Made by a program: the position numbers and the translations under genes
Notes under the pieces: generated by a model
What the model saw: only the letters and a program-made list of their open reading frames with translations
What the model was told of the DNA's origin: nothing
Databases searched by the model: none
Virus record (IMG/VR): IMGVR_UViG_3300014720_000002
Origin: a virus
Reading direction: 5' to 3' (one strand)
Length of the DNA stretch: 64,000 nt
Shown: piece after piece, positions 59,327 through 64,000 of the stretch
Layout of the letters: each line of letters opens with the position of its first letter
How positions within the stretch are numbered: the first letter of the stretch is position 1

Positions 59327-61672
59327 GTGCCGACCTTGTCTCCCATGCAGAAGCTGATGGCCGCCCTGGGCACCTCGGTCCCGGAAGGTATCCTCGGTCC
59401 CCGGCTGCGCGACCTGGCGCGCGAGGGTGGGCTGGCGTTCGCGCATCCTGGTGGATGGACCGATGCCTACCGCTCCCGCAAGCGGTATGCCCCAATCTGG
59501 CGGACGGCGCAGGAACTTGGCGTGCTGCCGACCGTCACTGCTGACAAGCGCCGGCTGCGTGACTTTGCTGACGGGGCGGTGGTCAATCTCGGGACGGACA
59601 AACCGCCGTTCAAGACCACTTGGAATGCCCGTGCGCCTGACTACGCCAGAAACTGGGCCTTGTCCGACGGCTCCGTGGACAAGCTGCGTGAGGCCGAATT
59701 GTTGCACGGATTCATACCAAAGACGGAAAGCCTTCGCCGGTTCACCCGTTCTGTCAGTCTTTCTCCGGCACGACAGGCTGCGTTGAAGCAGAAGCTGGAT
59801 GCGGCATATCCCGAAGGCTGGCTCATCAAGTCGCGCGGTTATATCGGGCAGATGACATCTGACATGCCGACGGACCTGGCCGCGGCGGGCAAATGGCCGG
59901 TGTTAGACGGGCAGGCCGCCGACTGGATCGTCCAGTCCCGGCAGGACATAGGTCGGTTTGCCCAGCCGCAGGCGCAGGTTGAGCGCTGGCTGTCCAAGCG
60001 TTTCGGTGCGCGTCCGCACGGCACGCACGAATACAGGGTGCATGTGCTCAATGGTCGGGTGGTGCCTTATGCCACAAAGCACAAAGGCGGTCCGGCGCAG
60101 GGTTTTTTGGAACGCTGGATGCCGTGGAATACGGCGCGCATAAACCAGGCCGAGGCGTTGACCCAGCGGGCCGCGAACCAGCTTGGTCGCGGCGATCGTA
60201 ACAAGACTTTCTATGCTTTTGACATAGGCTTCACTAACCGAGGAAAGCCGTTTGTCATCGAGGCCAATCCTTCAGCCACTGATGGAATGTCCGGCGAGTT
60301 CGCGGACCCTCATGTTCAGGACGCCATCGCGGCGGCCATCAAGGGCCAGTTACCCAACTACGTGAAAGCGCGGCGTGGGCTGTGGGCAGGCGGCACCGGG
60401 CTGGGAGTCTATCAGGCGTTCAAGCCAGAGGATGACACCCGCCCCGCCTGGCAGCGCTGGATGGGCAAGCAGTCGAGCCGGCGCGGTGGCTGGCTGGGCG
60501 CGTTTCCAGAGTATGTCGGTCTGTTGGAGTATGTTGGTCGTCCTGGCCTGTATAAGTCGGGAGGTATGGTAACGTCTGCGCTGGCCGGAATGCTGGCCGG
60601 TCGGGGAGTTGACGTAGCCGCCACCAAACTGCTGCGCCCGCTGGTGCCGGGGTGGAATTCATGGATGCACCGTATGGGACTTGAAGCCGGCTTGACGGGC
60701 GGGACCAGGGCGTTTTTACCAAACACCAGAAGGGCTTTGGGCGCCATCTCTGGCGGCGGCACTGGGGTGGTGGATTATGAGCTTGGCAACCAGATCGGCA
60801 GCGAGGTGCGCGGACGTTACCTTAAATCGCCTGGCCTGGTGGCCCGCGACACGGCTTCCCGGCTCACCGCGGACCGCTACCTGCAGGCATTGCGGACGAA
60901 TAAGGTGCCAGGACTGGCGCGGCGAGAAGCACAGCTATTGCGTCGGTCGGCACCATCCTTCGTTCGGAGCATCGCTGCGGGAGAGGTCAGCATGACCGGA
61001 CTGACTGGTGAAAATCTGACCTCGCCGTTGCTGCGGCACGCCCGGGCCGCGTATCAACACACTGCACCTGAGTTGTTGGCGCAGGATGTGACGCAATGGA
61101 CCCGCTGGTTGCCGAAGAGGTTCAGACCGGATCCGGCAACGACGGGCATGCGGATGCAACAACATCTTTCCAAACTGACTGGACCAGATCGTCCCTGGCG
61201 GCAAGCTATCGCGGGACCGGCGGTATCGGGAGGTTTGGGAGGTTTGGGAAGTTTGGCTGAAAATCTGGGGCAGGAGTTGATTTCGGGCAGCATGGCAGGA
61301 CCAATCATTCCCAGCGTGATCGCCAGCGCCGCCGGGCATCTACCTAACACTGCCGTCAATAATGTGTTGACGGCAGGTGCGGCGGCGGGGGCGTCCAATA
61401 CACTGCAGGCATTGAAATACAAATTGATGCTAACTGGTCACCAGCAACCTCGGCCGCTGGGATGGGGCGCACGGCTGCTGGACGCGACCTTCGAGCCGAC
61501 GGCTTCAGAATTCATACGGGCTGGGCAGGATTTACGACGGCTGCAGGATTCATCGCGCAGACTGTCGGCAACCCGACAGCCGGTTCAGGCTAGGCTCCAG
61601 GCGCATTCAAATGTAGGGCAAGGATTGCAGGCCGACGCGCGTCAGCTACAGCAGGCATGGTTTAACCGGTGA
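59327..61672 (+). CDS. ATP-grasp (RimK-like) ligase domain with a long Gly/Ala-rich C-terminal extension
   Basis: WLIKSRG, WIVQ, EYRVHVLNGRVV, FYAFDIG...PFVIEANPS. Start may be GTG 59327 or ATG 59345. Confidence 0.75.
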   Translation: MPTLSPMQKLMAALGTSVPEGILGPRLRDLAREGGLAFAHPGGWTDAYRSRKRYAPIWRTAQELGVLPTVTADKRRLRDFADGAVVNLGTDKPPFKTTWNARAPDYARNWALSDGSVDKLREAELLHGFIPKTESLRRFTRSVSLSPARQAALKQKLDAAYPEGWLIKSRGYIGQMTSDMPTDLAAAGKWPVLDGQAADWIVQSRQDIGRFAQPQAQVERWLSKRFGARPHGTHEYRVHVLNGRVVPYATKHKGGPAQGFLERWMPWNTARINQAEALTQRAANQLGRGDRNKTFYAFDIGFTNRGKPFVIEANPSATDGMSGEFADPHVQDAIAAAIKGQLPNYVKARRGLWAGGTGLGVYQAFKPEDDTRPAWQRWMGKQSSRRGGWLGAFPEYVGLLEYVGRPGLYKSGGMVTSALAGMLAGRGVDVAATKLLRPLVPGWNSWMHRMGLEAGLTGGTRAFLPNTRRALGAISGGGTGVVDYELGNQIGSEVRGRYLKSPGLVARDTASRLTADRYLQALRTNKVPGLARREAQLLRRSAPSFVRSIAAGEVSMTGLTGENLTSPLLRHARAAYQHTAPELLAQDVTQWTRWLPKRFRPDPATTGMRMQQHLSKLTGPDRPWRQAIAGPAVSGGLGGLGSLAENLGQELISGSMAGPIIPSVIASAAGHLPNTAVNNVLTAGAAAGASNTLQALKYKLMLTGHQQPRPLGWGARLLDATFEPTASEFIRAGQDLRRLQDSSRRLSATRQPVQARLQAHSNVGQGLQADARQLQQAWFNR

Positions 61673-61822: not shown

Positions 61823-62191
61823 ATGAAACAGCAAAACGACGCCTTGCGAAAAGTATTGGAGCAAGCGATCAAGGTCGCAGTCAGCCCGGAAGCAACACCG
61901 GACGAGATGGATAAACTGAGTCAGCGGCTGGGCGTAGCTGCCTTAGCTGCGGAGGGCTTGGCCGCGCTGGAGCAACAGGAGGCCTACAGCAGGTTTAACC
62001 GGCTGGCCCGCAACTTCGACCTTCAACTGGAGGCGCTGCCGGCGCTGCTGACTGCCGCCCATGAAACCTTGCCAGCCGGAGATCCAGGCAAGGCGGTGCT
62101 GCAGTTCCTTACGGCCCGGACACCGCTGGAACTGGCGGCCGCTATACTCGCGCTCAAGAAGCTCCGGCGCGAAGAAGCTCCGGCGGTCTAG
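61823..62191 (+). CDS. Hypothetical helical protein (start may be 61772)
   Basis: ORF between a class I promoter and the 62193 hairpin. Confidence 0.55.
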   Translation: MKQQNDALRKVLEQAIKVAVSPEATPDEMDKLSQRLGVAALAAEGLAALEQQEAYSRFNRLARNFDLQLEALPALLTAAHETLPAGDPGKAVLQFLTARTPLELAAAILALKKLRREEAPAV

Positions 62192-62237: not shown

Positions 62238-62251
62238 TTGGGTGTGTGGTG

Positions 62252-62290
62252 TTGCCATTCCGCTACCGGGCTGGCACGCTGTCCGGCATG
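62252..62290 (+). promoter_or_regulatory. Class II leaderless-type promoter TTGCCA-N17-CACGCT-N7-ATG
   Basis: Spacing identical to 55645-55683. Confidence 0.6.
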
Positions 62291-64000
62291 ATTCAAGCCA
62301 GCACCGAACCCTACGACCCCCTGCTGGACGCGAAGGCCGCCGGCATCCGCGCCGATCTGCGCGCCGCCGAGTCTACCACCAACCGGGAGCCGACCAAGGC
62401 TCAGATCCGCGCAGAAAATTACGCCAAAGGTGAGTTCAAGTGGCAGGGGTTGACGGTGCGCATCGAGAATCCCCGGGGCAGTGTGCGCAGCGGTGTCACA
62501 AAAGACGGACAGCCTTGGAGCCGAACGCTCAGGCACATTTACGGCCATCTCTGCACGAAGCGACATGGGCGCAGCGATGCGGACGGCGACGGTATCGACA
62601 TCTTTGTGGGCGATCATCCCGACAGCGCGTTGGTGGGTGTGATAGACCAGTTCATCGACGGCAAGTTCGATGAGGTAAAGTGCGTCATCGGATGCCTGGA
62701 CGCAGCCGACGCAGAACGCGTCTATCTGGCCAACTACCAGAAGAATTGGGACGGTTGCGGAGGGGTGACACTACTGACCGCCGAGCAGTTCAAGTCCTGG
62801 GCGAAGAACGGCGACACCGGCAAGCCGCTCAAGGGGCAGGACATGGCTTCGTTTCACAAGACCGCGCTGGACTTCAGCGAGGAGAGGCGCAAGCCGATTG
62901 GCTACGACGCCGACGGCAACATGGTCTGCGGTGACGGTTCAATCTTCGCTACCCGGGAGGAGATGGAAAAGCTTCGCCGACCGGCCGGCGCGCGGCTGGA
63001 CCAACTGGCTGTGCTGCCGCCAGGAATCACCGTTGAGCCAGGCAATGCGAAGGCAGCCGACGACCGCGCCTGGCATGTGGGGCGGAACACCGGCGAGATC
63101 AAGGAGGCCCGCACCGGCTTCCATCGCCCTGAGAACTTCGACCTCCTCAAGGAGCACAGCACGGAGAAGCTCAAGGTGGAGGCCGGCTGCAATGACTGGG
63201 AATCCGCCTGGACCGGCATCACCTTCACGTTCCCCGACCTGGGGCGTCAGGTCTGGGCGCACTTGACACCGCCCGCCACCTGTATCGACTCCGAGACGCC
63301 CAGCAAGGACCTGCCGCCCAGGGAGGAAATCCACGACTGGCAGGACAAGCTGGTGAAGGCATGGCTGTCTGCGGCCAAGGAACTGGCCCGCCAGGAGGAC
63401 GCCAAGCTGCATCCCGAACACTTCCTGCAGGCGGCCAAGGACACCCAGGTCAAGCAGTGGGTGGAGGCGGTGGGCGAGAACCGCATGAAGTGGGATCCGG
63501 TGAAGCAGGCATCCGTGGCGCCTCCAGCCGCCCAGCCGGAGGTCCAGGCTGGTCCGCCGCGCACCGGCCCCGAGGCCATCCTGCACGCCCTGCAGAACCT
63601 CGACCTGGACAAGCTCCGGGCTGACTCGATGGACGTGGTCCACCGCAAGCTCAAGAGCAAGCGCCCCGCTGCCGTGCAGATCCTGGGCTATCTGGAGGGT
63701 CTCAAGCGCGCCGAGATTCAGCCACACCAGTTGATGATCAGCCGGGTGCCGGTGCTGCCGCCCCAGTTCCGGCCGTTCTCTGCGGCTGGCGAGGCATTCA
63801 TCCCCGGCGATGCCAACGAGCTTTACCGCGACCTGTTCAACGTCCGGTCGGTCTATGAGCAGATGCGCGAGCGGCTGGGCGAGGAGGGGTCGCGGGCCGC
63901 GCGGCTCAACCTCTATGACGCCATGTCCGCGGTTTATGGGTTTGGCGAGCCGGTGTCCCCCAAGACGCGGGAGCGCGGGGTGACGGGGTTCCTGAAGACC
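62288..64000 (+). CDS. rpoC: InPase-like domain plus an unknown domain fused to the RNA polymerase beta-prime continuation; 3-prime partial and absent from the supplied ORF track
   Basis: Open frame from ATG 62288 to the window end (my translation). IENPRGSVRSG...PWS...YG...DGDGIDIFVG...IDQ...FDEVK...YLANYQKNWDG is the InPase of polyvalent proteins. From about 63561, TGPEAILHALQNLDLD...LMISRVPVLPPQFRP...DANELYRDL matches RpoC GAEAI..LL..DL...MIL.VLPVLPP.LRP...DLN.LYR. Confidence 0.9.
   Translation, partial: MIQASTEPYDPLLDAKAAGIRADLRAAESTTNREPTKAQIRAENYAKGEFKWQGLTVRIENPRGSVRSGVTKDGQPWSRTLRHIYGHLCTKRHGRSDADGDGIDIFVGDHPDSALVGVIDQFIDGKFDEVKCVIGCLDAADAERVYLANYQKNWDGCGGVTLLTAEQFKSWAKNGDTGKPLKGQDMASFHKTALDFSEERRKPIGYDADGNMVCGDGSIFATREEMEKLRRPAGARLDQLAVLPPGITVEPGNAKAADDRAWHVGRNTGEIKEARTGFHRPENFDLLKEHSTEKLKVEAGCNDWESAWTGITFTFPDLGRQVWAHLTPPATCIDSETPSKDLPPREEIHDWQDKLVKAWLSAAKELARQEDAKLHPEHFLQAAKDTQVKQWVEAVGENRMKWDPVKQASVAPPAAQPEVQAGPPRTGPEAILHALQNLDLDKLRADSMDVVHRKLKSKRPAAVQILGYLEGLKRAEIQPHQLMISRVPVLPPQFRPFSAAGEAFIPGDANELYRDLFNVRSVYEQMRERLGEEGSRAARLNLYDAMSAVYGFGEPVSPKTRERGVTGFLKT

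Follow-up and report, generated by a model that had tools for sequence, protein, structure and literature searches.

An InPase domain fused in frame to the RNA polymerase beta-prime subunit of an IMG/VR virus: a possible virion-delivered polymerase precursor with enzyme cargo

Background

What is a pyrophosphatase-like domain doing at the front of an RNA polymerase (RNAP) subunit? The question is raised by a gene at the end of a 64,000-nucleotide stretch of viral DNA (hereafter the window) from IMG/VR record IMGVR_UViG_3300014720_000002, in which an InPase domain precedes, in the same open reading frame (ORF), part of the beta-prime subunit of a multisubunit RNAP. The window covers positions 16542-80541 of the 167,647-bp genome record, which is linear and 86% complete according to CheckV. 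The first-pass annotation, made from the window, offered two readings of this gene: an RNAP with a tethered scavenger of pyrophosphate (PPi), or a polyprotein delivered with the virion. The analysis presented here favors the second and makes the first less likely, given the Lys-x-Ala (K-x-A) motifs that bracket the InPase, the enrichment of the same motif in head proteins, the swapping of domains in the InPase slot among relatives and the abundance of a homolog in virions of Salmonella phage Arash. The chances seem to us evenly balanced that the gene encodes a virion-delivered polymerase precursor with enzyme cargo, which would be packaged, trimmed and injected, its InPase acting early in infection.

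The occurrence of InPase domains in polyvalent proteins that are injected was described in 2017, together with the proposal that such domains remove PPi for transcription early in infection (Iyer et al., PMC5512222). The only polymerase listed there among the partners in polyvalent proteins is the N4-like single-subunit virion polymerase (PMC5512222). The literature that was searched contained no paper on an InPase or NUDIX domain fused to a phage beta-prime subunit.

Results and discussion

A continuous frame joins the InPase domain to beta-prime

The ORF opens on the + strand with a GTG at window position 62246, downstream of an in-frame stop at 62189. Its first ATG, at 62288, is the start given in the first-pass annotation and is probably the true one because close homologs begin with M-x-EPYDP. 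The frame runs off the end of the window after 585 aa (counted from 62246); in the genome record the full ORF encodes 1304 aa and ends at genome position 82701, equivalent to window position 66160 and about 2.2 kb past the window.

The in-frame fusion was upheld: no stop separates the domains in the window, in the genome record or in the contigs of three relatives (P0003, P0152 and P0153), which are independent metagenomic contigs carrying the same continuous fusion with cores 91-93% identical. Window and record differ at 28 single bases (0.04%), two of them inside the ORF and both substitutions, such as T in the window and G in the record at 63283, which turns Cys346 into Trp. A sequencing or assembly error that masks a stop or frameshift between InPase and beta-prime is effectively refuted: the 28 mismatches show that small errors or variants exist and nothing else was found in its favor, whereas the frame is open in both versions, the in-ORF differences are substitutions, the three relatives share the architecture and 28 more distant proteins also join InPase to the core. 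No near-identical DNA was found in the GenBank phage collection, and no close relative in IMG/VR besides the record itself.

The InPase domain retains its catalytic residues

The Pfam InPase profile (PF18823) matched over nearly its whole length (positions 2-135 of 135) at residues 52-187, with E 1.4e-37 and 128.9 bits against a cut-off of 26.8. The match thus exceeds the gathering score across the whole domain, and its location agrees with the interval of about 62400-62820 assigned in the first-pass annotation. When 27 InPase modules joined to polymerases of this family are aligned, 14 positions prove conserved in at least 90% of the modules, all of them present here (E74, P76, R81, G83, W91, Y99, G100, D113, D118, D142, E143, K145, Y160 and Y164); D115, conserved in at least 70%, is also present. 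These positions include the catalytic constellation E74, R81, Y99, D113/D115/D118, D142-E143-x-K145 and Y160, whose equivalents in Escherichia coli pyrophosphatase we take to be E20, the Y55 region, the D65/D67/D70 triad and D102/K104. The residues in place make the InPase look catalytically intact and active. The genome record, at its 86% completeness, holds a single InPase.

Sequence searching retrieved a single solved structure, that of a portal protein whose C-terminal part is an InPase (PDB 9b41_L, E 2e-23); classical pyrophosphatases (PPases) in the PDB gave no sequence match. According to Iyer et al. (2017, PMC5512222), the family does without a beta-hairpin insert that classical PPases have, and no PF18823 member with a measured substrate was encountered in the searched literature.

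The downstream sequence reveals a beta-prime core interrupted by an intein

Within the window, beta-prime is weakly detectable, the only match being a sub-threshold one to Rpb1_1 (E 0.003), so that the identity of the subunit cannot be proven from the window alone and requires the downstream sequence. With the full ORF, the beta-prime clamp named in the first-pass annotation was recovered in three ways. Rpb1_2 (PF00623) matched in two stretches (E 1.8e-15, 58 bits against 25.3). Residues 439-720 aligned by phmmer with residues 179-464 of E. coli beta-prime (E 1e-27) and with residues 454-743 of Thermus beta-prime. The predicted fold of the clamp and double-psi barrel region matched RNAP beta-prime structures (8w9z_C, Z 13.3 over 200 aligned residues; 6edt_D, Z 12.7 over 241), and likeness to phage RNAPs was found with AR9 (7s00_d, Z 10.1) and phiKZ (Z 8.7). 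The Rpb1_1 domain (PF04997), which comprises region A, the zipper and the zinc-binding element, was not encountered in the chain, scoring 15.7-17.3 bits against 39.7 over profile positions 193-250.

The catalytic motif NADFDGD, which the first-pass annotation suggested seeking downstream, occurs at residues 714-720 (genome 80926-80946), 385 bases past the window end, and is directly followed by an intein that the annotation had missed. The insert is a predicted mobile LAGLIDADG intein in the catalytic loop. It begins with Cys721 and ends in FVQD, after which the chain resumes with TVAVHLP, Thr1217 being the +1 residue; with residues 721-1216 taken out, the chain reads NADFDGD-TVAVHLP and is colinear with both bacterial beta-prime and the relatives that have no insert. 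An insert lies at exactly this site in 76 of 204 relatives, all 76 with a +1 Thr, where uninterrupted relatives have T, A or Q. Among close homologs the intein is polymorphic, being absent from P0003 (core 92% identical) and present in P0152 and P0153. The LAGLIDADG_3 profile scored just above its cut-off (23.5 against 22.5 bits) and Intein_splicing below (20.1 against 35.8). The last two intein residues are Gln-Asp, not His-Asn, and QD, YD, ND or FD endings are kept in 22 relatives at this site; inteins ending in Asp have been reported to splice. Inteins in RNA polymerase genes as such are already known.

Relatives show further variation of this kind. A second insertion hot spot splits the core at the equivalent of about residues 594-596 (K-F-S/L-V-Q-R-N-L-L), with inserts of 150-480 aa in P0004, P0012, P0019, P0026, P0041 and others, and is probably another intein site. 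One class of catalytic-loop inteins has Asn before the intein Cys (NADFDGN/C...YD/T; P0010, P0058, P0086, P0088, P0092, P0116, P0117 and P0126); two explanations offer themselves for this class, splice borders displaced by one residue or a spliced loop without its third Asp.

The polymerase chain is broken at a permissive site

The genome record encodes one beta, one beta-prime-N and one beta-prime-C gene. The closest cultured relatives of the core are Gp206/Gp216 of Salmonella phage Arash and proteins of Vibrio phages D69, D148 and D181 (33% identity, E 2e-34). Like the present virus, Arash has a single bacterial-type RNAP set. There, beta and beta-prime-N form one 1525-aa chain, encoded beside the portal gene and containing neither InPase nor intein. 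A tblastn search with Gp206 found five matching pieces in the present genome: two genes upstream of the window correspond to residues 19-468, the beta gene to residues 492-1104 and residues 432-721 of the fusion protein to residues 1139-1439. In contrast to Arash, the chain here is thus broken at the equivalent of Gp206 residues 1104-1139 or thereabouts, with the cargo located at the break.

The C-terminal 200 or so residues of the beta gene product align with Gp206 926-1104, the stretch that holds the first ~100 residues of beta-prime; Gp206 ~1030-1062 aligns weakly with beta-prime 33-65, and Gp206 from residue 1142 on aligns with beta-prime from 183 on. By these alignments, the first ~100 beta-prime residues would lie at the end of the beta gene, a mapping of region A for which Arash is the sole source; a direct PDB sequence search with the beta-gene tail returned nothing. 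The border between the two genes thus appears to lie inside beta-prime, and the chain appears to be broken at the A-B spacer (Gp206 ~1104-1139; beta-prime ~100-179), with residues 1-422 of the fusion protein as extra material there. This placement, which the first-pass annotation had missed, would make the break coincide with the known permissive site that separates regions A and B of beta-prime. The non-conserved domain of Thermus beta-prime occupies the same A-B position; it is a structural domain inserted within one chain, whereas here a gene break carries enzymes.

Residues 285-435 were considered as the missing beta-prime N-terminus, as suggested by their position before the core in 515-aa relatives that contain nothing else upstream of it. 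This candidate was rejected because Gp206 has only ~35 residues there and because the end of the beta gene accounts for region A.

The InPase occupies a slot with many tenants

A HMMER search with residues 1-720 against 1.84 billion representatives returned 12,917 hits. In the best 150 of these, the position of the core varies widely and protein length ranges from 270 to 2230 aa. InPase is present in 23 of the best 150, mostly N-terminally; it is internal in P0007, P0008, P0010 and P0022 and C-terminal in P0025. A search with the core only, unbiased toward InPase, yielded 1532 relatives of 717-2282 aa, the partners of which were read from precomputed Pfam lists. The best 120 contain InPase (14), NUDIX (15), LigD 3'-phosphoesterase (5) and the beta subunit (~25), as well as HAD_PNKP, 2H phosphoesterase, LysM/glucosaminidase and many inteins. 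Individual chains can be elaborate: P0013 has the order InPase-MazG-GNAT-LigD_PE-core, P0124 has InPase-beta-core (beta-prime-N), and P0203 carries a classical pyrophosphatase (PF00719) alongside NUDIX and InPase.

On a FastTree phylogeny of 216 cores, the InPase state changed at least 15 times for 28 carriers, compared with about 26 changes for shuffled labels. The nearest clade outside the four-member group of the present protein has an N-terminal NUDIX domain in the InPase position. No GenBank phage record has the fusion, and Vibrio phages 1.031.O and 150E35-1 encode InPase and beta-prime as separate, distant genes. An alignment-based scan of IMG/VR identified 15 distant loci, with InPase in this gene in 0/15 and NUDIX in 2/15. 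The survey of other phages that the first-pass annotation had called for shows an InPase-core fusion that recurs among relatives and occurs in none of the GenBank phage records.

By the architectures of the relatives, the fusion is one state of a variable slot. Several unrelated enzyme or effector domains per chain, in an architecture that differs between relatives, are the features by which polyvalent proteins are recognized (Iyer et al. 2017, PMC5512222), and the family displays both; the RNAP core would then serve as the polyvalent anchor. NUDIX, MazG and PPases cleave or release pyrophosphate, while LigD 3'-phosphoesterase, HAD/PNKP and 2H enzymes heal RNA or DNA ends, and the list of partners by itself favors neither aid to the polymerase nor action against host defenses.

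Conserved Lys-x-Ala motifs mark the module borders

Of 166 relatives, 136 have a K-x-A motif within the 50 residues that precede the core. In that stretch 30% of Lys residues belong to K-x-A, as against 8.5% elsewhere in the same proteins, a 3.5-fold difference. In the present protein K420 and A422 are conserved in at least 90% of alignment rows, while the adjacent linker is not conserved; the site lies within a segment predicted with a local confidence score (pLDDT) below 50. K-x-A also occurs right after the InPase in 25 of 28 carriers and just upstream of it in 18 of 28.

Across the genome, enrichment of K-x-A is confined to proteins encoded at 99.9-114 kb, the head module. The most striking is a 487-aa protein (genome 108225-109688) with 16 of its 28 Lys residues in K-x-A (p 2e-8), which matches a head-maturation protease PHROG (E 2.6e-5) and is a putative head protease; an 856-aa head-module protein (genome 100959-103529) has 17 of 40. 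We read the K-x-A motifs at the borders as candidate sites of the phage head-maturation protease, by which the fused InPase is probably cut free from the precursor. The searched literature held no paper on a K-x-A protease code.

The segment between InPase and core

The first-pass annotation described an unknown segment of ~240 aa after the InPase. The segment is real but consists of two parts: AlphaFold, run with 27 homologs, predicted residues 208-291 as mostly disordered, residues 292-414 as a confident alpha/beta domain and residues 415-434 again as disordered. The three closest relatives (P0003, P0152 and P0153) carry a HAD/PNKP-like phosphatase at the position of residues 208-291, which is absent here. 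The compact domain, termed mid2, gave a pLDDT of 87.6 and a predicted template modeling score of 0.81 when folded alone. It is present in ~20 of 150 relatives, always directly upstream of the core, including the 515-aa forms. Foldseek searches of the PDB and BFVD gave no match at E <=0.001, the best ESM Atlas score was 0.83 (chance level) and the best Z in a wide VIA-align comparison was 5.3 (noise level). The predicted fold of this ~120-aa domain is accordingly called unrecognized rather than new. The Pro/Ala linker noted earlier was found before the core.

A proposed course of events and the evidence that bears on it

These features can be assembled into the following scheme. The precursor would be the N-terminal half of beta-prime of the phage's only multisubunit RNAP, begun at the permissive A-B site. 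Its cargo would comprise, in order, a leader of 18-32 residues, the InPase pyrophosphatase, a disordered spacer and the 120-aa domain, followed by the core. The intein after NADFDGD would have to splice out to give an active catalytic loop. The precursor would assemble with beta and beta-prime-C and then be packed into the capsid, and trimming at K-x-A would free the InPase as a 19-kDa enzyme. Cargo and polymerase would be ejected with the DNA into the host, the polymerase transcribing early genes while, during the first minutes of infection, the InPase hydrolyzes either PPi or a nucleotide containing pyrophosphate. In this scheme cleavage, enzyme activity and substrate are inferred.

Packaging is suggested by homology to Arash Gp206. 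In gradient-purified Arash virions analyzed by liquid chromatography-mass spectrometry, Gp206 gave the most spectra of all proteins, 3516 (PMC10585845), and Gp216 (beta-prime-C), sigma factor Gp10 and helicase Gp217 were detected as well (PMC10585845). The virion-detected Arash 'pyrophosphatase' Gp23 was not used as support, being no InPase and encoded among nucleotide-metabolism genes.

Several observations weigh against this scheme. The Arash list comprises 116 of 272 proteins, and its authors warn of intracellular carry-over (PMC10585845); Arash, moreover, is without a PF18823 domain. Taken over its full length, the fusion protein shows no excess of K-x-A (11 of 82 Lys residues, against a genome mean of 12%), so the claim is limited to three positioned, conserved sites, and the other RNAP subunits of the genome show no enrichment either. 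Pfam detected no MuF or portal anchor and no embedded protease in the fusion protein or in the 15 relatives scanned. The C-terminus of the intein is Gln-Asp instead of His-Asn. Finally, the neighboring genes have no recognizable structural function: in 20 neighboring ORFs, PHROGs and Pfam recognized only a weak R2K ATP-grasp, an HNH endonuclease and a dNMP kinase, matches so sparse that gene context speaks neither for nor against a structural module.

What the InPase acts on is a separate matter. It may attack a pyrophosphate bond in a nucleotide-like molecule, such as an alarmone, a signaling nucleotide, a non-canonical nucleoside triphosphate or a 5'-triphosphate or capped RNA end, with the polymerase mainly its vehicle and the enzyme serving counter-defense or RNA-end processing. 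We regard this as a tentative suggestion and less likely than not, weighed independently of packaging and of tethering. NUDIX takes the same position in the sister clade, and MazG, LigD 3'-phosphoesterase, HAD/PNKP-like, 2H and GNAT domains are the repertoire of conflict-related polyvalent proteins; the lack of any PDB sequence match to classical PPases, with only the portal-fused InPase retrieved, fits as well. The catalytic constellation, however, is that of family I PPases, judging by the comparison with E. coli PPase, no substrate-binding extension is evident, and the searched literature holds no biochemistry on any PF18823 member. Linkage to NUDIX and GNAT has been argued to imply a nucleotide-like InPase substrate (Iyer et al. 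2017, PMC5512222).

Combining such a substrate with virion delivery, the RNAP in this large and sparsely studied phage lineage would be a chassis for capsid loading, whose swappable enzymes are freed by a head protease of hitherto undescribed Lys-x-Ala specificity, injected with the polymerase and active on a nucleotide or RNA end rather than on plain PPi. This combination is possible, though we would sooner bet against it than for it; it would be a new polyvalent class anchored on a cellular-type RNAP.

If the InPase were instead to stay on beta-prime permanently, held by the flexible linkers, it would hydrolyze the PPi released during transcription, favor elongation and suppress pyrophosphorolysis, and K-x-A would be no cleavage site. 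The fusion is in frame and recurrent, and its catalytic residues are intact; an N-terminal, internal or C-terminal InPase is what is expected if proximity alone counts, and partners that release or cleave pyrophosphate (NUDIX, MazG and the PF00719 PPase) dominate the slot. The attachment point, however, is the beta-prime A-B spacer, inferred to lie on the outer clamp surface away from the secondary channel; we take it from established RNAP structure that the spacer has this location and that PPi leaves through that channel. The slot also holds enzymes with no connection to PPi (LigD 3'-phosphoesterase, HAD/PNKP phosphatase, GNAT and LysM/glucosaminidase), and K-x-A is conserved in disordered linkers at every border. 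Most relatives are without InPase, which is therefore not needed for polymerase function. Even though clearance of PPi had been raised earlier (Iyer et al. 2017, PMC5512222), permanent tethering seems to us improbable.

The fusion might also be a neutral by-product, the A-B spacer tolerating insertions and upstream genes fusing to it by stop loss, in which case the polymerase would not be packaged and a separately encoded InPase would serve just as well. High partner turnover, the separate genes of Vibrio phages 1.031.O and 150E35-1 and the lineage-specific Thermus domain at the same site are compatible with this account. It nonetheless strikes us as a poor explanation, and distinctly less probable than tethering, for the slot strongly favors phosphoester and pyrophosphate hydrolases, chance fusions would not be expected to share a conserved motif at their borders and the Arash homolog is abundant in virions (PMC10585845).

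Comparison with known systems

The fusion protein resembles polyvalent and portal InPase proteins (PMC5512222; portal gp19, PDB 9b41) in containing the same domain family within a multi-domain, highly variable architecture, and in the idea of a packed and injected enzyme. Polyvalent proteins also list NUDIX, GNAT and 2H partners, as does this slot. It differs from them in its anchor, which is a multisubunit RNAP subunit rather than a MuF, portal or DarB-like module, and in having no embedded protease domain, the borders being marked by K-x-A.

A second comparison is with the RNAPs of phiKZ and AR9, which are split, multisubunit, packaged and injected, and similar in fold to the core described here. 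The AR9 virion RNAP has a beta fragment to which an HD phosphohydrolase is fused (Sokolova et al. 2020, PMC7598289). Those phages have two RNAP sets, whereas the present virus has one, with a core far closer to bacterial beta-prime; and the fused domain is an InPase in a swappable slot, not HD.

In Thermus phage P23-45 the virion RNAP is fused to the tape measure protein (PMC10770324). As in crAss-like and N4 virion RNAPs, a polymerase is joined to a virion-delivered protein and transcription starts on injection. Those enzymes are single-chain, highly diverged and part of a structural fusion, whereas here a canonical beta-prime fragment is joined to small enzymes.

Other features of the polymerase genes and their surroundings

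Coordinates are collected in Table 1. In this phage, each of the three large polymerase genes has been invaded by an intein. A free-standing gene for an HNH endonuclease is located at genome 85556-86227, 3 kb downstream of the intein-bearing polymerase gene. Just upstream of the fusion gene, window 59327-61672 encodes a 781-aa protein with a sub-threshold match to R2K-clade ATP-grasp (E 1e-4) and no PHROG match.

Table 1. Features of the fusion gene and of the other large polymerase genes (window positions unless marked as genome positions)
Feature	Position	Strand	Basis or remark
1304-aa ORF, 5' 1755 bases	62246..64000	+	InPase, unknown domain and RNAP beta-prime N-half with intein
Lys30-Ala-Ala32, end of short N-terminal leader	62333..62341	+	Candidate head-protease site
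InPase domain PF18823, aa 52-187	62399..62806	+	Pfam; PDB 9b41_L match; conservation in 27 modules
Lys205-Thr-Ala207, F-H-K-x-A tail after InPase	62858..62866	+	Candidate cleavage site
Disordered low-confidence stretch, aa 208-291	62867..63118	+	AlphaFold
mid2, compact alpha/beta domain with motifs PEN and NDWE, aa 292-414	63119..63487	+	Fold prediction
Lys420-Gln-Ala422 (VKQA/S, aa 420-423)	63503..63511	+	Candidate head-protease site before core
Pro/Ala-rich linker, aa 423-438	63512..63559	+	Sequence, AlphaFold
Start of beta-prime core, aa 439 on (E. coli beta-prime 179 on)	63560..64000	+	Pfam, phmmer, fold
LAGLIDADG intein, 496 aa, aa 721-1216	genome 80947-82434	+	Predicted; directly after NADFDGD
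C-extein, aa 1217-1304			After intein
RNAP beta gene, 1055 aa	4129..7296	+	Rpb2_6, E 9e-52; own LAGLIDADG intein at ~aa 500-855
Beta-prime C-half gene, 1000 aa	genome 95669-98671		Hint + LAGLIDADG intein

Conclusions

Two known phage strategies for gaining the upper hand in the opening minutes of infection, the packaged polymerase and the injected enzyme array, appear to be merged in one gene. If this is true, the gene would provide a natural case in which a pyrophosphatase and a cellular-type RNA polymerase are physically linked, and the slot in which it sits would amount to a catalog of entry-stage enzymes (InPase, NUDIX, MazG and 3'-phosphoesterases). Lys-x-Ala would be a candidate new protease specificity, from which capsid cargo could be predicted from sequence alone, and the list of cargo enzymes would point to host defenses or metabolic limits that bear on early transcripts or nucleotides.

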